A DNA stretch of 64,000 nucleotides. It comes from Planctomycetota bacterium (GTDB taxonomy: Bacteria; Planctomycetota; UBA1135; GCA-002686595). Location of the stretch: the NCBI GenBank assembly GCA_022446815.1, contig JAKVCD010000018.1:211908-275907 (forward strand). Direction: 5' to 3'. Made by a program: the position numbers and the translations under genes. Shown here in pieces: positions 1,448 through 55,720 of the stretch (positions within the stretch are counted from its first letter, which is position 1; each line of letters starts with the position of its first letter). The notes below the pieces were generated by a model. The model had not been told where the DNA came from, did no database searches, and worked only from the letters and a program-made list of their open reading frames with translations.

Positions 1448-2635
1448 ATGACCATGGACATCGTGACCCTTGGCGGTGAGACCGCCGCGACCGACGCCGA
1501 CCACGGCTTTGACGCTGAGACCTTTAAGGAGTTCATCTCCTTCGACGTGGGCGATGGAGCGCCGATCTATTACCACAGCGTCGGCAAGCTCTACCGCCAG
1601 CCCGGCGGAGAGATCATCGCTGACGTCGAGGCGCTCGTGAGCAACCGCTTGGTGAAGATGGAGGGCGATAAGGCGGAGGCCATCTGTCGCACCCTCGTGC
1701 TCTACCGAGATCCGGAGACAGGCGAGATCCTCAAGGAGGCCGACGGCAGCCACATTGTCCGGGAGTACCCGTACATCATCGCGCGCTTTGAGCGGAAGGA
1801 CCGTCGCCTTGTGATCCACACGGAGGGCCTCAGCGGTCCTCACCAGAACGGACACTACGGCCTCGCCAAGGTGAGCAATGACAAGGTCTACGCGCACCGC
1901 TCCGGCGACACGACGCTCTTTTACTGGACCCTCTACGGAGAGGTCGAGACGCCCATCGGCAAGGTGTGGTTTAACGAGGCCTACAACGGGTCGACCTCGC
2001 CGGACGTCATGACGATGAACCGCTACGGGACCCTGCCTGCCTTCGCTGGCATGGGCGACGGCTTCATGCAGACCACCGCCGCGCGCGTCGACTCTTACGA
2101 GGAGCTCCCGCAGCACATCCGTGAGTACGTCGAGGAGCACGCGCCCTCGCATGTCGCCCCTCCGGTAGACGACGAGGAAATCGCGCGCCTGCGAGACGAA
2201 TACCTCGGTGATGCGCCCCCTGAGGGGCCGAAGTCTGAGGCACCCAAGCGCCTCAGCAACGAGGAGATCGCGGAGGTGGTCGGACAGTACTTCTCCTCCC
2301 TGCGCCTGATGGAGGTGGACGAGCTCTTGGACCTCTTCACTGAGGACGCCTTGAGCTGGGACCCTGTGGGGACACCTCCGATGCGCGTCCGCGACAAGTC
2401 GACGAACTACTTCCGAGCGCTCTCGAAGATCTTCGACAAGATGTCCCTCACCGAGGACGACATCTTCGTCTCAGGCAACGAGGCCGCTGTGAGGTGGAAG
2501 GGCGAGGCCAAGCTCCGCAGGAAGGAGACCGAGGTTAAGTTTGACGGTGTGAGCGTCTTTGAGATCAGTCCCGAAGGTCTGATCCAGAACGTCCGCTCCT
2601 ACTGGGACAAGCCGGGCTTGATGGCCAGCCTCTAA
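1448..2635 (+). CDS. Hypothetical protein with C-terminal SnoaL/NTF2-like domain
   Basis: The ATG at 1448 lies in frame within track ORF 1310-2635, and the upstream part overlaps the heme oxygenase gene. The last ~120 aa (VVGQYFSSL..LFTEDA..FVSGNEAAVRWKGEA..FDGVSVFEI..IQNVRSYWD) look like an NTF2/SnoaL fold. The N-terminal ~270 aa are unassigned. Confidence 0.6.
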   Translation: MTMDIVTLGGETAATDADHGFDAETFKEFISFDVGDGAPIYYHSVGKLYRQPGGEIIADVEALVSNRLVKMEGDKAEAICRTLVLYRDPETGEILKEADGSHIVREYPYIIARFERKDRRLVIHTEGLSGPHQNGHYGLAKVSNDKVYAHRSGDTTLFYWTLYGEVETPIGKVWFNEAYNGSTSPDVMTMNRYGTLPAFAGMGDGFMQTTAARVDSYEELPQHIREYVEEHAPSHVAPPVDDEEIARLRDEYLGDAPPEGPKSEAPKRLSNEEIAEVVGQYFSSLRLMEVDELLDLFTEDALSWDPVGTPPMRVRDKSTNYFRALSKIFDKMSLTEDDIFVSGNEAAVRWKGEAKLRRKETEVKFDGVSVFEISPEGLIQNVRSYWDKPGLMASL

Positions 2636-27985: not shown

Positions 27986-29689
27986 TTAGTCTCTCTTGAG
28001 ACCTCGAAAGAGGTCCTTGAGGCCGCCCTCTGTGGCCTTCTCTAGGAGGACGCCACGCGCAGCGCTGGTCAGCCAGCGCTTCCAGGCGCCGTCACGATCA
28101 ACCAACCTCGGGTTATCTAAGCGGCCCTCCAAGCGGAGCTTCACGGTGTCAGCGGGCAGTGAGACGGCGCCGCTCCCGATGTCGGCGCGTCCGCCGGTGA
28201 TCTGCAGTTGGATCTCACCGTCTAGCTTGGCGCCGGGGCTGGAGACGAGCCCCTCGACCCCGAGGCCGATGGCGCCTGCGAGGAGCTTGTCCTCGATGCC
28301 GAGGTCTTTGGCTAGCCGCACAGCGTCCACTCCAGCGCCGCCGCCCTGAAAGCGCCAGCTGCTCGCACTCTTGCGTGACCAAGAGAGCTCTAGGTCTCCG
28401 TCGCTCGTGCGAGCAGTGGTCGTCATCGGTCGCTCGACGAGCTCTGGCTCGTCAGAGAGATCGGAGAGGACGAGCTCTACCGTGCGTCCATCTCCCAGCG
28501 GGATGTCACGCCAGGCTGCTTCGATGATGTGTACGCGCGGCCTGCTGCGGTGGAGGGGGGTGCGAGCAGCGGGAGGGGGGATGAAGATCCCTGCCGCCTC
28601 TTGAGCAGCACGCTCAGCCTCCGCGCTAGAGCCCTCACCTCCGAGGAGCTCGAAGCCTCGCCGCACCTGCTCGAGCAGCTCATCGAGCCTCTCCTTGTCT
28701 TCGATGAGCTCGCGCCAGTCGATCACTCTGCCCTTGTCGGGCTTTCCGGTATCCGCCTCGCTCAGCGGGGGGAGCTCAATCTTGGATCCTGGTTGTTCAC
28801 GGGGCTGGTCAAAGCTCGCGCCGCTTAAGACGAGGCGCTCGATGACGATCTCGTGCCTCGCGAGGGCTGCGGCGTCGAGGTCAGCCTCGAGGGATTCCCA
28901 GCGCACGAGGTCACGGCTGAGGTCCTCTGGATCAACGACCGCGAGCCCGCCCACAGAGATCTTGGCCTGCGCAAAGGAGAGCTCAGCCTCACGGCAGTCG
29001 ACCTGCGCGCCAGTCACTTGGGCGAGGGAGCTCACGAGGGCGCCACGGATCCCCTTCGCCTGAGCGAGTGAGAGGTAGGTGCTCGCTCCCAAGACGATCA
29101 AGATGAGGCCTAGCACGCCTGCTGGGCGCCACCAGCGACCCGTCAACTCTAGCGTAGATCGGAAGCCCTCCTTCGGAAGTCCACCAAGGAGCAGCCACGC
29201 GAGCGCTCTCACCCAAGCCTTTGAGGTCCATAGCCGGAAGGCCTCAGAGCCCTCCTCTAGGGTCGCGAGCTTCTCTCTGAGCCGCGTGACTAGCTGAACC
29301 AGGAGCGCCCCTGTGAGGGCCCCAAAGAGCAGCCCTACGGCCGCACCACCGCTGACTCGGTTTGACTCCCACTCCGCCCAGGCCAAGAGCGGAGCCTCTG
29401 CTAGCCGTGCGAGGAGGCCGCTGAGTGGACCGCTCGAGAGCGCGCCTCCGACTCGTTCGACCTGCTCATATGCGGCGAGGGCTACGAGGGAGCTCGCGCC
29501 CGCAACGGCCATGAAGAGCGGGACGCTCGCGTTCAAGATCAAGAGCGCACCGACACAGAGCGCCAAGAGCGCAGCCCCAGTGTGATCCCAGGGCACGAAA
29601 CCTACGACGCCACCTAAGAGGCAAGACAGGGTGAGCTGCTCACTTGTGACGCGGCCTACGAGCAGGCCGAGGATGCGGTGACGTGACAC
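27986..29689 (-). CDS. Large membrane protein, N-terminal polytopic region plus AsmA/DUF748-like extracytoplasmic region (assignment tentative)
   Basis: About 5 TM helices in the first ~210 aa. This is followed by repeated 'L.F...+I.V.GL.V.DP' and 'I.I.RL.L.G' beta-rich patterns. It lies 64 nt downstream of, and co-directional with, the repeat-protein genes. Confidence 0.6.
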   Translation of the reverse strand: MSRHRILGLLVGRVTSEQLTLSCLLGGVVGFVPWDHTGAALLALCVGALLILNASVPLFMAVAGASSLVALAAYEQVERVGGALSSGPLSGLLARLAEAPLLAWAEWESNRVSGGAAVGLLFGALTGALLVQLVTRLREKLATLEEGSEAFRLWTSKAWVRALAWLLLGGLPKEGFRSTLELTGRWWRPAGVLGLILIVLGASTYLSLAQAKGIRGALVSSLAQVTGAQVDCREAELSFAQAKISVGGLAVVDPEDLSRDLVRWESLEADLDAAALARHEIVIERLVLSGASFDQPREQPGSKIELPPLSEADTGKPDKGRVIDWRELIEDKERLDELLEQVRRGFELLGGEGSSAEAERAAQEAAGIFIPPPAARTPLHRSRPRVHIIEAAWRDIPLGDGRTVELVLSDLSDEPELVERPMTTTARTSDGDLELSWSRKSASSWRFQGGGAGVDAVRLAKDLGIEDKLLAGAIGLGVEGLVSSPGAKLDGEIQLQITGGRADIGSGAVSLPADTVKLRLEGRLDNPRLVDRDGAWKRWLTSAARGVLLEKATEGGLKDLFRGLKRD

Positions 29690-29752: not shown

Positions 29753-31303
29753 TCAAGCTCCCCAGGTGATCTCGTAGCCGTTTGAGAGGTTGAACAGGCT
29801 CGAGCAGGGGGAGGTACCAGCGTCACGATACCAGTACTGATAGCGGCGCGTTTGGCCCACGCTGATGGTGCCGTTCGTGACGATCGAGATGGTGGAGCTC
29901 GTCGTGAAGTTGTTGCCGGAGTTGGCGAACTGGACCTCGAGCCTGCGGACGCTGCCCCCAGCGCAGCGGAGGCCGTCCCCGAAGGGGTTCCCGTTCCCCG
30001 AGTTGACGGCGTTGTTGCCTTGGAAAAAGAGGCCCGGGCCAGGGGTGAGGTTGGTAGCTGTCAAGACAACATTGTCCGCTGCGACGCTCGGCGTACCTGA
30101 GGCGGTGAGCTCTGCGCCGCTGCCCGTGTCGTTCGCGCACCCTTCACCGAGGCCGCCGTTGTTTGAGCAGGGGCACGGGGTCCCGATGCCGTCACCGAAG
30201 CAGTACTTCGTACCGGGCTCCGAGCTGCCGAGTCCGGTCGCGCGGGTCATGAGGACCGCGGGGAAGCCGATCGAGTCAAGATCTGCGGGTGCCTGATCGT
30301 TCAGAGTGAGGTCGTTCAAGTTGAAGGCACCAGCAGTGTTCGAGAAGGACGCGAAGGAGCGACCGCTCGAGCTGAAGCTCTCATCAAGCGGGGCAGGGTA
30401 TTCGCCCACTCCGTGGGTGCAGACCACCCCGACGATGAAGTTGCCGGAGACCGCGACGCCGCCGGTGGAGTAAGAGTTCAGGATGTCTGTGTCAGCGTTC
30501 GTGACCGTCGTGGCTGTGCTCCAGAGGAGCACTCCGTCGCTGGGGTCTCCGTCGTTGTTGGGGTCATCCCAGATACCGACGGTGGCGGCGCTTCCGTTTG
30601 TGATGGATCCGGGGATCCCGGCAGCCCCATAGGAGGTCTGGACCACAGTGATCGTGTCCGCGCCGCCCTCGGCTGCGAAGAGGTTGCCCCACCAGATGTC
30701 TCCGCCAGCGGAGAGTCCGAGGTTGTTCGTGGCTGAGCCGAGGTCGTAGCGATAGCCGTCAGGCTCATCGAGGATCGTGACTTCCAGCGAGCCGGAGCCG
30801 CCGCTGGCGCCGTCCCAGGTGCCAACCTGTAAGAGGTAGGTAGAGCCGGAGCTGACGCTGAAGTTGATCGTCGACTGGAATCCGCACGCGTCGTCATTGC
30901 AGGCGATAGCGCTCCCGTCAGAGGGGCAGCTGCTACCAGCGTAGGCGGCGAGCTTCGAATCGATCGTCGTTTGGCCGCAGGTCGAGATCTGAGCGAGGCC
31001 CGTGGCATCGGCGGTCCATGCGAACCACACGTCGTTCCCTATCGCGCTCGCCCCGAAGACATAGCAAGAGGGCTCAGCTTGTCCTTGCGTACCGGTCGTG
31101 GCGCTCGAGTTGTTGAATGCGAAAAGCCCTTGGCCTGAGATCGATGCTGCTGATGAGCAGTCATCGCTGCCGCCTACGACGATCGCGGCTACGGTCGTAG
31201 AGGGAGTCAGCGCTCCAGGTGCGCTCGTCCGGCCAGCGCTGAACTGCGCGTTTGCTACGGAGAGGCTTGAGAGGGAGAGACAGAGGATGAGAGCGTGTCG
31301 CAT
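29753..31303 (-). CDS. Secreted Cys-rich protein A: one repeat module, a middle beta-rich domain, and the shared C-terminal domain
   Basis: Start at the internal ATG 31303 gives signal peptide MRHALILCLSLSSLSVANAQ. One DDC..NDVWF.WTA..ACNDD..YLLQVG module. Tail has FGDGLRCAGG..YQYWYRD..NLSNGYEITWGA-stop. Confidence 0.8.
   Translation of the reverse strand: MRHALILCLSLSSLSVANAQFSAGRTSAPGALTPSTTVAAIVVGGSDDCSSAASISGQGLFAFNNSSATTGTQGQAEPSCYVFGASAIGNDVWFAWTADATGLAQISTCGQTTIDSKLAAYAGSSCPSDGSAIACNDDACGFQSTINFSVSSGSTYLLQVGTWDGASGGSGSLEVTILDEPDGYRYDLGSATNNLGLSAGGDIWWGNLFAAEGGADTITVVQTSYGAAGIPGSITNGSAATVGIWDDPNNDGDPSDGVLLWSTATTVTNADTDILNSYSTGGVAVSGNFIVGVVCTHGVGEYPAPLDESFSSSGRSFASFSNTAGAFNLNDLTLNDQAPADLDSIGFPAVLMTRATGLGSSEPGTKYCFGDGIGTPCPCSNNGGLGEGCANDTGSGAELTASGTPSVAADNVVLTATNLTPGPGLFFQGNNAVNSGNGNPFGDGLRCAGGSVRRLEVQFANSGNNFTTSSTISIVTNGTISVGQTRRYQYWYRDAGTSPCSSLFNLSNGYEITWGA
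29756..30205 (-). other. Shared C-terminal domain (copy in A)
   Basis: YCFGDGIGTPCPCSNNGGLGEGCANDTGSGAEL..VVLTATNLTPGPGLFFQGNNAV..FGDGLRCAGG..RYQYWYRD..C..FNLSNGYEITWGA. Confidence 0.8.
30761..31165 (-). repeat. Single copy of the ~135-146 aa Cys-rich module in A
   Basis: DDCSSAASISGQG.F.F..SSATTG.QGQAE.SCYVFGASAIGNDVWFAWTADATG...STCG....DSKLAAY.GSSCP.DGSAIACNDDACGFQS...F.V..GSTYLLQVG. Confidence 0.8.
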
Positions 31304-31470
31304 GTCGGCGTCAGAGGTCGGTCTAGGTCGGGATGGAGGGGATCCAAGGCCAGCTTGTGCCCATACCCCTAGGATCAAGGATACCCCGAAATTCAATTTC
31401 CTGCCGTTCATGTGCGCCGGTGGGGCAGTTCGGAGCGCTCTTCCTTGGGCGAACCTCCGCTATGAGAGGC

Positions 31471-31556: not shown

Positions 31557-34328
31557 TCAGGCGCCCCAGACGATGTTGATAGCGTTGGTGAGGTTGTGGC
31601 TGTTGCCGCAGAGCCCACCACTGGAGACCTCACGGTACCAGTACTGGTAGTTCAGGCTGTCGCCAGCGCTGACACCTCCGGTCGCGGCGAGATCCACGGT
31701 AGAGAGGGCGTTACCAGAGGCGTCAGAGGCTGTCACCTGGAGGCGGATGGCGTTGAAGCCAGCGCAGCGTAGGCCGTCTCCGAAGGGGAGTCCGGCGCCG
31801 CCGTTCACAGCGTTCTCACCAGAGAAGAACACGCCCGGGAGACCCGGAACCGCGCCCACCGCGAGGAGGGAGACGCTGGAAGCGCTAGCGCTCGGGCTAC
31901 CCGTAGCGGCCAGGGAGGCCGGCTGGGTGGTTGAGTTAACACAACCAGAGGGCAGGATCTGAAGCGCGTCGTTGCCACAGGGGCAAGCGCCGCCGCTACC
32001 GTTGCAGTAGGGGACACCCGTCGTCGCGATGACAGAGAGGATGCCGGTGCCAGCTTCACCTCCGCTCCAGCCGCCGACATTGACCTGATAGGTCGTGCCT
32101 GCCGCGGCGAAGAAGCCGAGGCCAGACTGGAGACCGCAGAGGTCGTCGCTGCAAGCGACCTCAGCACCACCGCAGCCATCGAAGACCGCGAGGACTGTGT
32201 CGAAGTCAGCGGCAGGGGTGCCGTCTAGGTTGCAGAGCGCCATGATCACGAGGCCATTCTCAGCCGCCGTGTAGGAGTGCCAGACATCGTTGAAGTTGTC
32301 ACGGCAGGAGATCGCAGTACCACCAGAGGCAGCCGCCGATCCGTAGCTCGCGCCAGTCGTGTCGATCAAGTTCGCACCATCGACGAGCGTGCCAGCGTTG
32401 GCGCAGTCATCGTGCGGGTGCGGAGGCAACGCGCTACCGATCGAGATCGTCAGGTTGCCAGAGCCGCCGGCAGTGCCGGGGAAGTGGCCGACTTGGAGCA
32501 GGTAGCTCGAGCCGCTCGTGACGTCAAAGCTCATCTCAGAGGTGAAGCCAGCGCAACCGGATGCGTCGTCGTTACAAGCGAGCGACGAGCCGTCGACAGG
32601 GCAACCGCCGGCCGGATAAGCCGCGATCTTCGTGTCAGCGCTCGCGTCGTTGCAGGTCGAGATCGTGGCGGTGCCGTCGGCGTCAGCGGTCCACTCGAAC
32701 CAGACGTCGTTGTCGACCGCGGAGCTGCCGAAGCTGTAGCAGAGGACCTCGTTCTGTCCCTCAGCGCCAGTCGTCGCTGTGACCGCGCTGAAGGGGAAGG
32801 CCCCTTGGCCAGCGATCGCCTCGGGAGCGGAGCAGTCGTCTGCGCAGCCGGTGCAAGAGGATGCTTGGCTGACGTTCAGAGTGGCGGCGCCACCGGGAGA
32901 GCCGGGGAAGTTACCGCACATGATGAGGTAGCTCGAACCAGCGGTGCAGCTGAAGGCGATCTGCGACTGGAGGCCGCAGGTGTCGTCGTTGCATGCGAGA
33001 GCAGCGCCGTCAGCGGGGCAAGCGCCACCGTCGAAGGCAGCGATCTTGGTATCCGGGGCAGAGCCACAGGTGTCCATGGTCACGGTGCCGCTGACGGTCG
33101 CGGTCCACTCGAACCACATATCGTTGTCGACGGCTGAGCTTCCAAAGGCGAAGCAGAGGGCCTCGTTTTGACCTTCAGCGTCTGTCGAGTTGCTGGAGTT
33201 GTCATAGGCGAAGTTGCCGTCACCGGAGATCGCGCTCGGGTTGGAGCAGGTCTCACCCTCGGCGGCGACCAGGGTTTGCGTGATTGTCACGTTGCCAACG
33301 CCGCCGGAAGTGCCGGGGAAGTGCCCAACCTGCAGGAGATAGCTGCTACCTGCGGTGCAGGCGAAGGACATCTCTGAGGTGAAGCCTGCGCAGCCCGTGC
33401 CGTCGTCGTTACAAGCGAGCGCCGAGCCGTCAACGGGGCAACCGCCGGCCGGATAAGCCGCGATCTTCGTGTCAGCGCTTGCGTCGCTGCAAGTAGAGAC
33501 GGTGACCGATCCATTGGTGTCGCAGGTCCACTCGAACCAGACGTCGTTATCAACTGCGGAGCTTCCGAAGTTGTAGCAGAGGGCCTCGTTCTGTCCCTCA
33601 GCGCCCGTCGTCGCGGCAGTCGCGTCGAAGGGGAAGACACCGTCACCGGAGATGGGTGTAGCGTCAGCACACTCGTCTGTACCGGTCGTCACGCAGGGGG
33701 CCGTGACGGTGATATTAAGGAGACCAGTTCCACCGCCTGAGCCAGGGAAGCTGCCGACCTGAATCAGGTAGGCGGTCCCTGCTGTGACTGCCATGTCGAG
33801 CTCAGAGGTGAAGCCAGAGCAGCCAGAGGCATCGTCGTTGCATGCGATGGCCGAACCGTCAGCGGGGCAACCGCCAGCGGGGTAGACCGCGAGTCTCGTG
33901 TCGAAAGTGGCGCTATCGCAGAGCGAGACGTTCGCTGAGCCGTCGCACTCTGTGTTGGTCCACTCGAACCAGACGTCGTTCTCGATAGCGCTTGAGCCGA
34001 AGCTGTAGCAGATCGCTTCATTCTGACCTTCAGCGCCAGTTACGGCAGCACTGGAGTCGAAGGGGAAGGATCCTCCGCCCGCGATAGGGGTAGCGGCGGC
34101 GCAGTCATCGGCGCCAGGGACGCCCATATTGAGCTGTCCGCCGATCGTGCCGATCCTGCCGAGGTTGACAGTCTGCTTGGACTGATAGTTGGGCTTTGAG
34201 GTCGGCTGGGGCTTTTGTCCCGGGCGTGCGACCTGCTTCTGCTGAACCTGCGCTGTCGTCGCAGGCACTTGTGCGAACGCGAGGCCTGTACAGGCCATGA
34301 TCGCGAAAGCGAATGTGAAACGTTTCAT
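31557..34328 (-). CDS. Secreted Cys-rich protein B: five tandem modules plus the shared C-terminal domain
   Basis: Start at ATG 34328 gives signal peptide MKRFTFAFAIMACTGLAFAQ, then a Q/P/K-rich linker. Five modules follow, with boundaries near nt 34109, 33677, 33254, 32840 and 32411, then a 151-aa tail. Confidence 0.85.
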   Translation of the reverse strand: MKRFTFAFAIMACTGLAFAQVPATTAQVQQKQVARPGQKPQPTSKPNYQSKQTVNLGRIGTIGGQLNMGVPGADDCAAATPIAGGGSFPFDSSAAVTGAEGQNEAICYSFGSSAIENDVWFEWTNTECDGSANVSLCDSATFDTRLAVYPAGGCPADGSAIACNDDASGCSGFTSELDMAVTAGTAYLIQVGSFPGSGGGTGLLNITVTAPCVTTGTDECADATPISGDGVFPFDATAATTGAEGQNEALCYNFGSSAVDNDVWFEWTCDTNGSVTVSTCSDASADTKIAAYPAGGCPVDGSALACNDDGTGCAGFTSEMSFACTAGSSYLLQVGHFPGTSGGVGNVTITQTLVAAEGETCSNPSAISGDGNFAYDNSSNSTDAEGQNEALCFAFGSSAVDNDMWFEWTATVSGTVTMDTCGSAPDTKIAAFDGGACPADGAALACNDDTCGLQSQIAFSCTAGSSYLIMCGNFPGSPGGAATLNVSQASSCTGCADDCSAPEAIAGQGAFPFSAVTATTGAEGQNEVLCYSFGSSAVDNDVWFEWTADADGTATISTCNDASADTKIAAYPAGGCPVDGSSLACNDDASGCAGFTSEMSFDVTSGSSYLLQVGHFPGTAGGSGNLTISIGSALPPHPHDDCANAGTLVDGANLIDTTGASYGSAAASGGTAISCRDNFNDVWHSYTAAENGLVIMALCNLDGTPAADFDTVLAVFDGCGGAEVACSDDLCGLQSGLGFFAAAGTTYQVNVGGWSGGEAGTGILSVIATTGVPYCNGSGGACPCGNDALQILPSGCVNSTTQPASLAATGSPSASASSVSLLAVGAVPGLPGVFFSGENAVNGGAGLPFGDGLRCAGFNAIRLQVTASDASGNALSTVDLAATGGVSAGDSLNYQYWYREVSSGGLCGNSHNLTNAINIVWGA
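31560..32012 (-). other. Shared C-terminal domain (copy in B)
   Basis: YCNGSGGACPCGN..GCVNST..LLAVGAVPGLPGVFFSGENAV..FGDGLRCAG..NYQYWYRE..C..HNLTNAINIVWGA. Confidence 0.8.
32013..34109 (-). repeat. Intragenic tandem array of 5 coding modules of 133-144 aa (399-432 nt)
   Basis: Each unit begins D-[DE]-C (one begins E-T-C). Each carries GQNE..C[YF].FGSSA[VI][DE]NDVWFEWT, DT[KR][IL]A.[YF], ACNDD and YL[IL]QVG.FPG. The fifth unit is divergent. Confidence 0.9.
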
Positions 34329-34572
34329 GGGAGTTGTGTGAATGGGTTTATGTGTGGATCCAAAGAACACGAGAGGGAGGTTTTGAAGCTGGCGTTACCC
34401 TGCCTGAACTCACGAAACATGCGAGTCCACTACCCTGCCGGTCCTACTCCAGACTCACCCAGAAACGCAAAATCGGCAATCTACAAACTAGAAGATTCGA
34501 GGTTAGACCCCTCTAGACACCCGAAAACCACACTTATTGGTGAGTTCGCTTGGCTTGGCGATCAGCCACAGT

Positions 34573-34710: not shown

Positions 34711-37017
34711 TCACGCGCTCCAGGTCAGCTCAATACCGTTCGTCAGGTTGAACTGAGCGCCACAGGCCGAGGTGGCCGGGTCACGGTACCAGACCTGGTA
34801 GCGCTTGACGTCACCAGCAGCGACTTGACCTTTGGTCGAGATGCTGATGTTGGTGTCGGCAGCGCCGCTTGCGTCAGGGAAGCGGACCTGGACTCGGATG
34901 ACCCCACCGCCAGCGCAGCGGAGGCCGTCACCAAACTGGATGCCGTCACCGCTTTGGATAGCGTTGTTGCCCTGGAAGAATAGACCGGGCTGGTTGGGCA
35001 GCAGCTGAGTCGCACTCAAGACGAGGGTGTCGTTTGAGATGCTCGTGTCACCAGAGCAGGTGAGCTTGCCACCGACGCCGGAGCCGTTAGCGCAACCTTC
35101 ACCGGTGGCGCCAGCGTTACCGCAGGGGCAAACCGTCGCGCCAGTGTCGTCGCCAGAGCAGTACACCGTGCAGGGGCCCGTCGGATCGCCTGCGATGATG
35201 CAGTCGAAGGTGCCCGCACCGATACCAGCGGCACTGAACGTACCGAACTGAATCAGGTAGGTGGTGTTGCTCGTGACGCTGAACTGCATCTCGGACTGAA
35301 GACCACAGACGTCGTCGTTGCAGGCCAGGATCGTGCCGGGGACCGGCGGGCAGGCGTTGGGCCATGCCGCGATCTTGGTGTCGAGCGTCGCGCCTCCGTT
35401 GCAGAGGGTGACGTCGGCGAGGCCGGTGGCATCAGCGGTCCATGAGAACCAGATGTCGTTGTTCACGGCGCTGGAGCCGAAGGCGTAGCACAGAGCTTCG
35501 TTTTGACCGTCGGTTCCAGTGGTCGCGGGGAGCGAGGCCGTGGAAGCGCCGGAGTTGTCGAAGTTGAAGGTGCCTTGACCAGAGATGGCGACCGGAGCCG
35601 AGCACTCGTCGTTCGGGTGCAAGACCGGCGGAGCGCCAGCAGAGATGTCTAGGGTGCCTTGGCCACCAGCGGCGCCAGGGAAGCTACCAACCTGCAGGAG
35701 GTAGGTGGTTCCGGTGGTCGCCGAGAAGTTGATCTCCGAGGTGAAGCCAGCGCAGCCAGTGAAGTCATCGTTGCAGGCCAGAGCGGAGCCCGCAGCCGGG
35801 CAGCCACCGCTGGGGTAAGCAGCGAGCTTAGTGTCATAGGCGGCGTTGTTGCACGTCGAGACGGTCGCGTTGCCGGTGAAGTCAGACGTCCAGTCGAACC
35901 AGATGTCGTTATCAACCGCGGAGGAGCCGAAGTCGTAGCAGATGTACTCGTTCTGCCCTTCGGCGCCGGTCGTCGCCAGGGTCGTGTCGTAGGTGAACTG
36001 GCCTTGGCCCGCGAGGGGGTCAGGGCTGCTGCAGTCGTCGTTACCTGACGGCGGCGCGAGGCCGTTGATGTCAAGGTTGCCGGTACCGCCGGTGGCGCCA
36101 GGGAAGGTGCCGACCTGGATCGTGTAGACCGAGCCAGAGGTGGCCGCGAGGATGACGCTCGACTGCAGGGCGCAGTTGTCATCGTTGCAGGCCAAAACTG
36201 CACCAGCGCTCGGGCAGCCGGCGCCGGGGTAGACACCGATCTTGGTGTCGACGGTGGTGGCGCCGCAGGTCCCGATGCTCACGCTCTCGGATGCAGGGGC
36301 TGTCCACTCGAACCAGACGTCGTTGTCGACCGCGGAGGAGCCGAACGCGTAGCAAGCGTACTCGTTCTGACCCTCAGCGCCGGTGGTGGCGAAGCTGTTG
36401 TCGAAGGCGTAGCTGCCGTAGCCGCTGATCGCGTCAGCGCTGGCGCAGTCGTCGTTACCGCCGCCTCCGCCGCCGCCGCCGCCGCCGCCGCTCTCACTGA
36501 CGTTGATGGTGCCGGTTCCGCCAGCTGAGCCGGGGAAGTTGCCGACCTGGATCAGGTAGCTCGTCGATGCCGTGCAAGGGAACGAGATCTGCGACTGAAG
36601 GCCGCAGGTGTCGTCGTTGCAGGCGATAGAAGAGCCGGCCGCGGGGCAAGCACCGCCAGGGTAGGCAGCGATCTTGGTGTCGAGGGTGTTTCCGCAGGTG
36701 TCGACGAGAGCTGTGCCGGTCGTCGCTGCGGTCCACTCGAACCAAACATCGTTGTCGATGGCGGAGGAGCCGAACGCGTAGCAGGCGTACTCGTTCTGGC
36801 CTTCAGCGCCGCTTGTAGCCGCCGAGTTGTTGAAGTTGAAGGTGCCAGCGCCAGAGATGGCAACGGGCGTATTGCAGTCATCGCTGCCACCAACCGAAGC
36901 GTTGATGGTAGTCATCATCATCGCCTTCGTCTTACTGGTTGGTTTTTGGGCCGGCTGCTGGGCGTTCGCGGAGCTCGCGCCGATCAGCAGACATGCGGCC
37001 AAGATGGAAAATTTCAT
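34711..37017 (-). CDS. Secreted Cys-rich protein C: four tandem modules plus the shared C-terminal domain
   Basis: Signal peptide MKFSILAACLLIGASSANAQ and a Q/P/K linker. Module boundaries lie near nt 36882, 36453, 36039 and 35610. A Gly11 linker follows module 1. The tail is 153 aa. Confidence 0.85.
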   Translation of the reverse strand: MKFSILAACLLIGASSANAQQPAQKPTSKTKAMMMTTINASVGGSDDCNTPVAISGAGTFNFNNSAATSGAEGQNEYACYAFGSSAIDNDVWFEWTAATTGTALVDTCGNTLDTKIAAYPGGACPAAGSSIACNDDTCGLQSQISFPCTASTSYLIQVGNFPGSAGGTGTINVSESGGGGGGGGGGGNDDCASADAISGYGSYAFDNSFATTGAEGQNEYACYAFGSSAVDNDVWFEWTAPASESVSIGTCGATTVDTKIGVYPGAGCPSAGAVLACNDDNCALQSSVILAATSGSVYTIQVGTFPGATGGTGNLDINGLAPPSGNDDCSSPDPLAGQGQFTYDTTLATTGAEGQNEYICYDFGSSAVDNDIWFDWTSDFTGNATVSTCNNAAYDTKLAAYPSGGCPAAGSALACNDDFTGCAGFTSEINFSATTGTTYLLQVGSFPGAAGGQGTLDISAGAPPVLHPNDECSAPVAISGQGTFNFDNSGASTASLPATTGTDGQNEALCYAFGSSAVNNDIWFSWTADATGLADVTLCNGGATLDTKIAAWPNACPPVPGTILACNDDVCGLQSEMQFSVTSNTTYLIQFGTFSAAGIGAGTFDCIIAGDPTGPCTVYCSGDDTGATVCPCGNAGATGEGCANGSGVGGKLTCSGDTSISNDTLVLSATQLLPNQPGLFFQGNNAIQSGDGIQFGDGLRCAGGGVIRVQVRFPDASGAADTNISISTKGQVAAGDVKRYQVWYRDPATSACGAQFNLTNGIELTWSA
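34714..35172 (-). other. Shared C-terminal domain (copy in C)
   Basis: YCSGDDTGATVCPCGNAGATGEGCANGSGVGGKL..TLVLSATQLLPNQPGLFFQGNNAI..FGDGLRCAGG..RYQVWYRD..C..FNLTNGIELTWSA. Confidence 0.8.
35173..36882 (-). repeat. Intragenic tandem array of 4 coding modules of 138-146 aa
   Basis: Same module consensus as in B. Two subtypes are interleaved: NDD.CG[LF]QS and NDD..GC.GFTSE. Confidence 0.9.
36457..36489 (-). repeat. Trinucleotide tract encoding Gly11
   Basis: Plus strand reads acc gcc gcc tcc then (gcc)x7, with the perfect (GCC)7 at 36469-36489. It forms the linker between modules 1 and 2 of C. Confidence 0.9.
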
Positions 37018-54977: not shown

Positions 54978-55720
54978 GGATCGTCTCGCTCTGTCCGAGC
55001 CTCACTGAGCTCGTCTGTGACCTTGGGCGCTCCAGAGACCTCATCGCGTGCACCAAGTTCTGCGTGCATCCGGAGCGACGCGTCAAGCGACTCTTGAAGG
55101 TCGGGGGTACTAAGGACCCGAAGATCCAAGAGATCATCGCCCTCAGTCCTGATGTCGTCCTGATGAACGATGAAGAGAACCGCCGCGAGGACTTTGAGGC
55201 GCTCACCGCTGAGGGGGTGGACTGTTACTCCACGATGCCGAGGACCATCAAGGAGACTGCGCAGATGGTTCGTTCTATCTCGGCGATCATAGGCGGCTCG
55301 CAGAGGGGAGAAGAGATCGCTGGTGACATAGAGACGCGCGCTGATCGTGTCTCTGCAGCAGCCGCAGGGCGTAAGCCGACGAGCTTCGCCTACATCATCT
55401 GGGCGAGGCCGTGGATGAGCGTGAATGACGACACCTTTGCGCACGCGCTCCTCACTAACGCGGGCGGAGTGAACGTGTTTGCAGGTCGCTCGGAGCGCTA
55501 TCCCGAGATCAGCCTCGCTGAGCTCAAGGAGGCTAACCCTGATGTCGTCTTACTCTGCACTGAGCCTTATCCGTTCAAGAGCGGCGACGTTGTTGATCTC
55601 TCAGTGGAGATCGACGTGCCCATGGACAGGATCTTCATCGCCGACGGCGAATACCTCTCTTGGCACGGGTCTAGGACTCCAGACGGGATTGACTACGCAG
55701 AGTCTTTGATCGCAGGGTGA
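54974..55720 (+). CDS. Cobalamin-binding / helical-backbone metal-receptor (BtuF-like) protein without signal peptide
   Basis: MRIVSLCPSLTELVCDLG, LSPDVVLMNDEENR and NPDVVLLCTEPYPF are present. ATGA overlap with the MBL gene. Confidence 0.65.
   Translation: MRIVSLCPSLTELVCDLGRSRDLIACTKFCVHPERRVKRLLKVGGTKDPKIQEIIALSPDVVLMNDEENRREDFEALTAEGVDCYSTMPRTIKETAQMVRSISAIIGGSQRGEEIAGDIETRADRVSAAAAGRKPTSFAYIIWARPWMSVNDDTFAHALLTNAGGVNVFAGRSERYPEISLAELKEANPDVVLLCTEPYPFKSGDVVDLSVEIDVPMDRIFIADGEYLSWHGSRTPDGIDYAESLIAG

Follow-up and report, generated by a model that had tools for sequence, protein, structure and literature searches.

Tandem six-cysteine PF23759 modules in three exported proteins of an uncultured marine Planctomycetota bacterium: candidate surface-attached binding arrays

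Three co-directional neighbouring genes on the minus strand, here called A, B and C, have been analyzed in a window of 64,000 nucleotides (the whole stretch of DNA studied, whose numbering is used for the coordinates) from the 3.2-Mb genome of an uncultured marine Planctomycetota bacterium. Translation of the open reading frames (ORFs) and alignment revealed that A, B and C encode 1, 5 and 4 copies, respectively, of a cysteine-rich module, and that the three proteins share a C-terminal domain. Sec signal peptides were predicted on all the module proteins, and no catalytic domain, peptidases included, was found in A, B or C by Pfam and NCBIfam profile searches. The three genes are the following:

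29753-31411, minus strand: gene A; ORF as listed of 552 amino acids, with a probable start at ATG 31303 (MRHALIL...); signal peptide, one module, a middle region of ~180 amino acids and the shared C-terminal domain.
31557-34370, minus strand: gene B; ORF as listed of 937 amino acids from a GTG, with a probable start at ATG 34328 (MKRFTF...) that gives 923 amino acids; signal peptide, a short Lys/Pro/Gln-rich segment, five modules and the shared C-terminal domain.
34711-37017, minus strand: gene C; 768 amino acids; signal peptide MKFSILAACLLIGASSANA, a short Lys/Pro/Gln-rich segment, four modules and the shared C-terminal domain.

As judged from the reading frames, translation most likely starts at ATG 34328 in B and at ATG 31303 in A, in both cases directly before the signal peptide, which is MKRFTFAFAIMACTGLAFA in B and MRHALILCLSLSSLSVANA in A when counted from these codons. 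The middle region of A (residues 215-397, 30221-30769), which leads from the module to the terminal domain, is rich in Gly, Ser and Thr and has no Pfam match.

The modules were delimited by anchoring on the GQNE motif, followed by alignment. Module length was about 131-145 amino acids (~135) and the linkers had 0-8 residues, the longest one (eight residues, between C1 and C2) being part of a run of eleven glycines. All of the following features are on the minus strand:

33696-34115, minus strand: module B1, residues 86-225 of the B protein (P0001), GCxGFTSE subtype, 203 bits against the module hidden Markov model (HMM).
33264-33683, minus strand: module B2, residues 230-369, GCxGFTSE subtype.
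32847-33260, minus strand: module B3, residues 371-508, CGLQS subtype.
32427-32846, minus strand: module B4, residues 509-648, GCxGFTSE subtype.
32025-32417, minus strand: module B5, residues 652-782, diverged CGLQS type without the GQNE loop, 115 bits against the module HMM.
36484-36888, minus strand: module C1, residues 44-178 of the C protein (P0002), CGLQS subtype, the sequence used for the structure model.
36457-36489, minus strand: run of eleven glycines (Gly11) that links C1 to C2, with a (GCC)n tract as its coding sequence.
36055-36459, minus strand: module C2, residues 187-321, CALQS form.
35632-36045, minus strand: module C3, residues 325-462, GCxGFTSE subtype.
35182-35616, minus strand: module C4, residues 468-612, CGLQS subtype, seven residues being inserted ahead of ATTG.
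30770-31171, minus strand: module A1, residues 81-214 of the A protein (P0004), CGFQS form, 205 bits against the module HMM.

A preliminary description of this DNA, made from the sequence alone, had proposed tandem cysteine-rich modules in this 5/4/1 distribution over B, C and A, and both translation and alignment bear it out. The interval that it had marked, 32013-34109, corresponds to B residues 88-786 and takes in the whole five-module array, and all the motifs that it had quoted were present: DDC, ATTGAEGQNE..C[YF]xFGSSA, NDVWFxWT, DTKIAxY, CP, ACNDD and YLIQVGxFPG..GG.G. Pairwise amino acid identity among the 10 modules was 32-73% over ~135 residues. B5 is the outlier, with 32-39% identity to the other modules, and A1 showed 47-57% identity to the B and C modules and 36% to the diverged B5. 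The closest pair, B2 and B4 (73% amino acid identity), shares 81-87% of its DNA over 180-300 nt at an offset of 837 nt.

Six cysteines are aligned in all 10 copies, in the motifs DDC, xCYxFG, S/TxC, GxCP, ACNDD and CGLQS or GCxGFTSE. Two subtypes had been distinguished by the sequence that follows ACNDD, with the orders I,I,II,I,II in B and II,II,I,II in C; taking I as GCxGFTSE, this agrees with the orders found, which are GCxGFTSE, GCxGFTSE, CGLQS, GCxGFTSE, CGLQS in B and CGLQS, CALQS, GCxGFTSE, CGLQS in C. The extra cysteine that had been ascribed to the GCxGFTSE subtype has to be withdrawn, as this residue aligns with the cysteine of CGLQS and the difference lies in a 3-residue insertion; C3 (GCxGFTSE) and C2 (CALQS) contain six cysteines each. 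Additional cysteines do occur in B1, B2, B3, C1 and C4, at other places, and they are not conserved.

The modules were assigned to the Pfam family PF23759 (GBD_T9SS_assoc, gathering score 27 bits), with five matching stretches in B (89.4 bits, E=2.6e-25) and four in C (59.1 bits, E=6.7e-16); A alone scored 19.6 bits, under the cut-off. The matches in B and C far exceed what chance would produce. The match covers profile positions 1-106 of 116, nearly the whole module. Because the scores per module (21-36 bits) are near the cut-off, the module is considered to be a divergent six-cysteine branch of PF23759, a curated family described as "Galactose binding domain-like" and named for proteins associated with the type IX secretion system (T9SS). 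It is a PF23759 member in the PPC-like branch of the galactose-binding-domain-like sandwiches, where PPC stands for pre-peptidase C-terminal, and the HMM search suggested in the preliminary description thus led to a curated family that already holds the module and not to a new kind of domain. Both the anatomy of the repeats and their family membership are near certain.

The structure of module C1 was predicted with AlphaFold2 from a 70-sequence alignment as a nine-strand beta-sandwich, with high confidence (pLDDT 96.7, pTM 0.91). In a Foldseek search against the Protein Data Bank (PDB), the best matches had TM-scores of 0.54-0.58 on the query and 0.64-0.72 on shorter targets. Top rank was for the lysozyme inhibitor PliG (4dzg, E=6.2e-4, TM 0.56/0.64, 18% identity), and the other leading matches were the PPC domain of the Bacillus anthracis collagenase (5sv5) and the collagen-binding domains (CBDs) of ColG and ColH (1nqj, 1nqd, 3jqw), with a probability of 1.00 for 5sv5, 1nqj and 1nqd; further sandwiches of the galactose-binding-domain-like type were also among the top matches. 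This ranking and the export of A, B and C would suit an inhibitor of the PliG kind that blocks lysozymes or proteases of grazers or competitors. However, the identity to PliG is low and is not accompanied by a profile-level sequence match, PPC and CBD folds score equally well, and neither tandem arrays nor lectin partners would be expected of a typical Pli-type inhibitor, so that this explanation is regarded as very improbable.

The impression of a PPC beta-sandwich given in the preliminary description was well founded at the level of the fold: in addition to the PF23759 assignment and the Foldseek matches, a profile search of PDB sequences retrieved 2luw (E=0.027), a PPC domain from a Vibrio metalloprotease, in an alignment that pairs NDVWFxWT, DTKIAVY and YLIQVG with PPC strands. 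PF04151 (PPC, gathering score 25.9 bits) is a precomputed label on some homologues, and it reached sub-threshold scores of 24.8 bits on a paralogue and 20.5 bits on a Phycisphaerales relative; no match at E<=1 was found on A, B or C. A plain PPC identity, which the preliminary description had wanted checked, has been rejected, since PF04151 stayed under the cut-off on every module tested, and the relation is one of superfamily or fold only. The likeness to the PPC domain and to the collagen-binding domains of clostridial and Grimontia collagenases (5sv5, 1nqd, 1nqj, 2luw) comprises the beta-sandwich topology at fold level, the motif logic NDxWF.. / D-T-K-I-A-x-Y / Y-L-I-Q-V (2luw alignment) and the use in tandem, known from s3a-s3b of ColG. 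By contrast, the module has ~135 amino acids instead of 70-110, being ~30 residues longer mainly in the loop between strands 2 and 3, where a conserved stretch of ~25 residues with the strongly conserved TTGxEGQxE..C has been added; it has six conserved cysteines; and it occurs in A, B and C without a peptidase, so that "pre-peptidase" would be the wrong name for it. Insoluble collagen is a known ligand of PPC-type domains, and the ColG CBD needs Ca2+ to bind (PMC6168687). In the module alignment D3, D47, D70, D92 and D93 are invariant or at least 90% conserved, and they lie in motifs that match acidic motifs of PPC; the Asp/Asn motifs (DDC, NDxW, DTK, CNDD) probably form a putative structural Ca2+ site.

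A database search with C retrieved more than 1,000 relatives, all of them annotated as "hypothetical", and those with a named source were metagenome-assembled genomes (MAGs) of Planctomycetota. The best 120 relatives have 3-6 modules each. Cysteine statistics were obtained from the 532 complete modules of these 120 relatives: the six columns contain Cys in 83-99% of the modules, and all six residues are present in 466 of them. Conservation of the cysteines in orthologues, on which the preliminary description had made its proposal depend, was therefore found. Missing cysteines go in pairs, Cys3 and Cys6 being lost together in 19 of 22 cases, and Cys1, Cys2, Cys4 and Cys5 form one cluster with alternative pairings in the co-loss data. 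The six cysteines presumably form three disulfides per module.

In the source genome, the module HMM detected 26 modules, spread over 12 ORFs, and this number is a minimum because two contigs end inside arrays. These contig ends (contig C24, 44172-45381, and contig C19, 95269-96535) carry nearly identical module sequences and are assembly breaks in repeats; the proteins at the ends are of the types LTD plus module and unknown domain plus module. The architectures of the paralogues include module plus C-type lectin plus terminal domain, and LTD plus module. In relatives from Phycisphaerales and Isosphaeraceae MAGs the modules are interspersed with Cys-rich spacers and a type I dockerin takes the place of the terminal domain found in A, B and C. 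Five such loci, from Phycisphaerales, Isosphaeraceae and Planctomycetaceae MAGs (L061:5017-8076, L066:1-2553, L071:5392-8064, L072:3390-6386 and L056:5797-8730), combine modules with Cys-rich spacers (CC..C.ADAFCC..WD..C) and PPC-like domains; a dockerin-like terminal repeat was recognized by eye in all five, and Pfam Dockerin_1 confirmed it in L061.

Like other PF23759 proteins, B and C match the family HMM, have a predicted jelly-roll beta-sandwich and carry tandem arrays in secreted proteins. They differ from them in the Planctomycetota host, in the lack of a detected T9SS C-terminal domain (CTD) or SprA, and in arrays that end in a tag of ~150 amino acids, or in dockerin in relatives. The T9SS CTD (TIGR04183, Por_Secre_tail) was found neither in A, B and C nor anywhere in the genome, and SprA (TIGR04189) was not found in the genome in a search that had no positive control. 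With no Por_Secre_tail and no SprA, A, B and C have been rejected as T9SS cargo in the source organism.

A maximum-likelihood tree was built with the modules of the window and those of eight orthologues. The modules cluster by position, B1 with the first module of the closest orthologue (P0030), B2 with its second module and the rest in the same order, and C1-C4 behave alike. One clade unites B1, B2, B4 and C3, all of the GCxGFTSE subtype, and the orthologues of B5 in P0030, P0051, P0054 and P0080 form a clade of their own. Identity to the orthologous module at the same position was 74-78% for modules 2-4 and 39-50% for modules 1 and 5, at the ends, and the mean identity between positions in B was 48%. 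The orthologues keep the subtype order of C (CGLQS-type, CGLQS-type, GCxGFTSE, CGLQS-type) and of B (GCxGFTSE, GCxGFTSE, CGLQS-type, GCxGFTSE, CGLQS-type), and across the family the loop after ACNDD takes further forms beside these two. Since every position of an array has an orthologue of its own, the arrays are old and are not being homogenised; they are mosaics that combine two or more lineages of modules, with a separate constraint on each position.

Recent duplication or concerted evolution has been rejected, as B2 and B4 have separate orthologues in P0030, P0051 and P0054; B2 and B4 may have undergone local gene conversion. Metatranscriptome contigs of two runs contain a joint that goes back 837 nt between B4 and B2 (33375->32539 and 33583->32747, region 32539-33583), which stems either from a strain that differs in module number or from chimeric assembly over the stretches of 81-87% DNA identity. 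Similar tandem gene clusters occur in related MAGs, with 2-3-4-5 and 3-3-3-5-4 modules in consecutive genes.

The history of the arrays bears on whether the modules could be a passive stalk or scaffold, which would give length and protease resistance and hold the K/P/Q-rich N-terminus or docked partners off the cell, as a spacer or in the manner of a cellulosome scaffoldin. Linkers of 0-8 residues between rigidly stapled modules, dockerin-bearing relatives that suggest larger complexes, and a module that precedes other domains in A and other paralogues would all be in line with such a role. However, B and C hold only modules from the signal peptide region up to the terminal domain, spacer repeats usually homogenise whereas here the positions are separately conserved with ~48% identity between them, and the most conserved segment outside the core is a surface loop. 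Conservation by position would fit position-specific roles and not a mere spacer, and the stalk or scaffold is considered improbable.

The C-terminal domain shared by A, B and C is the less ordinary element of the locus. Its copies in the three genes are the following:

29756-30220, minus strand: terminal domain of A.
31560-32015, minus strand: terminal domain of B.
34714-35181, minus strand: terminal domain of C.

This domain carries the motif CPCGN..GCxN..FFxGxN..FGDGLRCAGG..YQxWYRD..NLTNG..W and matched none of the Pfam or NCBIfam models at E<=1. It was found in about 70 ORFs of the genome (74 HMM hits), about 2% of the genes, and it stops 2 residues before the stop codon in 66 of these ~70 ORFs. 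In public data it is represented by about 21,000 clusters at 50% identity, with a C-terminal location in 150 of the 150 best hits, and among 301 sampled genomes of the phylum its abundance is confined to the family of the source organism, one genome of which has no copy. Its structure was predicted as a beta-sandwich (pLDDT 95.7) for which Foldseek found no close fold in the PDB (TM at most 0.46). Matches of a profile of the terminal domain to immunoglobulin light chains in the PDB, due to a short resemblance in strand motifs (SGS..D.TL.I..L...D.A.YYC...FG.GT), have no Foldseek support and were rejected as chance or convergent. Passengers of other tagged proteins are LTD, PD40, right-handed beta-helix, Laminin_G_3 and CBM96.

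In three ORFs the terminal domain is N-terminal, located directly after the signal peptide and followed by 600-780 amino acids of other domains:

genome contig C33, ~72991-73377, minus strand: N-terminal copy of the terminal domain.
genome contig C9, ~2167-2541, minus strand: N-terminal copy of the terminal domain.
genome contig C12, ~55043-55480, plus strand: N-terminal copy of the terminal domain.

By eye, BNR-like DGGxTW repeats, a CxxCH haem-motif protein and an esterase-like region were noticed among the ORFs with an N-terminal copy. The N-terminal copies point to an autonomous anchoring or binding module rather than to a strictly C-terminal secretion signal. As in surface proteins tagged with dockerin or with the T9SS CTD, one terminal tag is common to many exported proteins with unrelated passengers, and in the dockerin-tagged relatives of B and C Dockerin_1 occupies the position of the tag. 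Unlike those devices, the tag described here is a beta-sandwich of 150 amino acids with no Pfam or NCBIfam model and a TM of at most 0.46, and it is also found N-terminally.

DNA of the locus was found in marine metagenomes of at least 12 studies, and gene C in more than 20 metatranscriptome assemblies. In four metatranscriptomes, contigs of 95-99% identity tile most of C and parts of B, with one short piece on A; within the 31 kb tested no gene is covered better than C, the two flanking genes have no contig, and the first 20 kb of the window have only scattered pieces of ~150-340 nt. Crude as this contig evidence is, it indicates in situ transcription of C and B, which is probably strong. A spike in contig depth of ~200 at 36282-36662, on the (GCC)n tract of the Gly11 linker and with many loose ends, is an artefact of low-complexity contigs from other organisms and not expression.

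These transcripts are where the main rival explanation enters, namely a structural envelope or coat in which disulfide-rich chains would serve as building blocks of a surface layer or wall, with no specific external ligand, as a functional analogue of the YTV wall proteins of Planctomycetales, cross-linked through the non-conserved extra cysteines. High expression of C would fit a coat, as would the long spacers that C and B each have upstream and the extra cysteines of several modules, which would be able to form intermolecular bonds. Cys-rich wall proteins are a known planctomycete theme, and the YTV proteins are, like A, B and C, exported, Cys-rich and repeat-built envelope proteins (PMC8567305). 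They have a different domain, which is restricted to Planctomycetales (PMC8567305); PF07639 (YTV) had no match in the source genome, in a search whose control genomes gave no positive. This absence is counted in favour of a coat. The identity of A, B and C as YTV wall proteins has been rejected for lack of a PF07639 match in that search, and YTV is kept as a functional analogy only. Against a coat, the twelve module proteins with their varied partners (lectin, LTD, unknown domains) and the 3-6 modules of the orthologues look like a binding repertoire that has diversified, dockerin is the means of attachment of these arrays in relatives, and a conserved exposed loop with position-specific conservation would be superfluous in a mere brick. 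A coat is therefore thought rather unlikely.

The explanation that we favour, with moderate confidence, is that A, B and C are multivalent, surface-attached binding arrays of a lectin- or adhesin-like kind. This is because they have signal peptides and stapled modules, lack an enzyme domain, have a PPC/CBD-like fold with a conserved loop and conserved positions, keep company with lectins and use interchangeable means of attachment. The proteins would be exported through Sec, and the mature part would consist almost entirely of a short-linker chain of PF23759 beta-sandwich modules of ~135 amino acids, each stapled by its six cysteines, presumably as three disulfides, and each presenting a strongly conserved TTGxEGQxE surface loop. 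The chains would bind an extracellular polymer multivalently, and the shared terminal beta-sandwich domain would hold them at the cell surface, a role that would be that of dockerin in distant relatives and of the T9SS CTD in the Bacteroidota members of PF23759. The adhesin or lectin idea of the preliminary description agrees with the fold and with the company of C-type lectin, LTD and dockerin; the binding function itself we infer, as we do the disulfides, the Ca2+ binding, the surface location and the ligand.

Several points weigh against these binding arrays. High transcript abundance and many paralogues would also fit a structural coat, and the expression evidence, being based on contigs, is weak. 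A TM of ~0.55 means similarity of the fold only and not a shared function. The co-loss data back only the Cys3-Cys6 pair, the pattern of Cys1, Cys2, Cys4 and Cys5 being ambiguous. As a means of crossing the outer membrane, neither a T9SS CTD nor, in a search that had no positive control, SprA was found, and a literature search on PF23759 retrieved no paper naming the family.

With regard to the neighbouring genes, the upstream flank of the trio is a gene for a methyltransferase/APH-kinase fusion. The downstream flank, at 27986-29689, encodes a membrane protein of 567 amino acids in which TIGR03546- and TIGR03545-like parts are fused to a DUF748/AsmA-like region. This AsmA-like gene sits 64 nt downstream of A, and one related Antarctic MAG (L065) likewise has it next to a tagged gene that resembles A. 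A functional tie to the upstream methyltransferase/kinase fusion or to an ECF-CHAT operon was rejected, as no synteny was observed in the related loci L050, L051 and L054.

A wider proposal, which we regard as doubtful, is that the arrays are dominant, highly expressed surface fibres of cosmopolitan marine planktonic Planctomycetota with small genomes, that they capture a specific polymer of algae or particles, and that they represent one cargo class of an undescribed surface-attachment system defined by the tag. It is a similarly tentative part of this proposal that the tag replaces dockerin or the T9SS CTD in the lineage and has a dedicated receptor or export partner.

The repeat is real; its module has a place in Pfam already, and arrays like these are common. 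In PF23759 arrays, a functionally unstudied kind, a very widespread design of bacterial surface proteins is emerging. What this case adds is a PF23759 module in Planctomycetota with two other attachment devices, dockerin and a new tag of 150 amino acids, together with stable cysteines and array positions, lectin-type company and active transcription in the ocean. For proteins of this class C and B are small, at about 750-920 amino acids, which makes them convenient for a first biochemical or structural study of PF23759, and they are an entry point to a terminal tag carried by about 2% of the genes of the organism.

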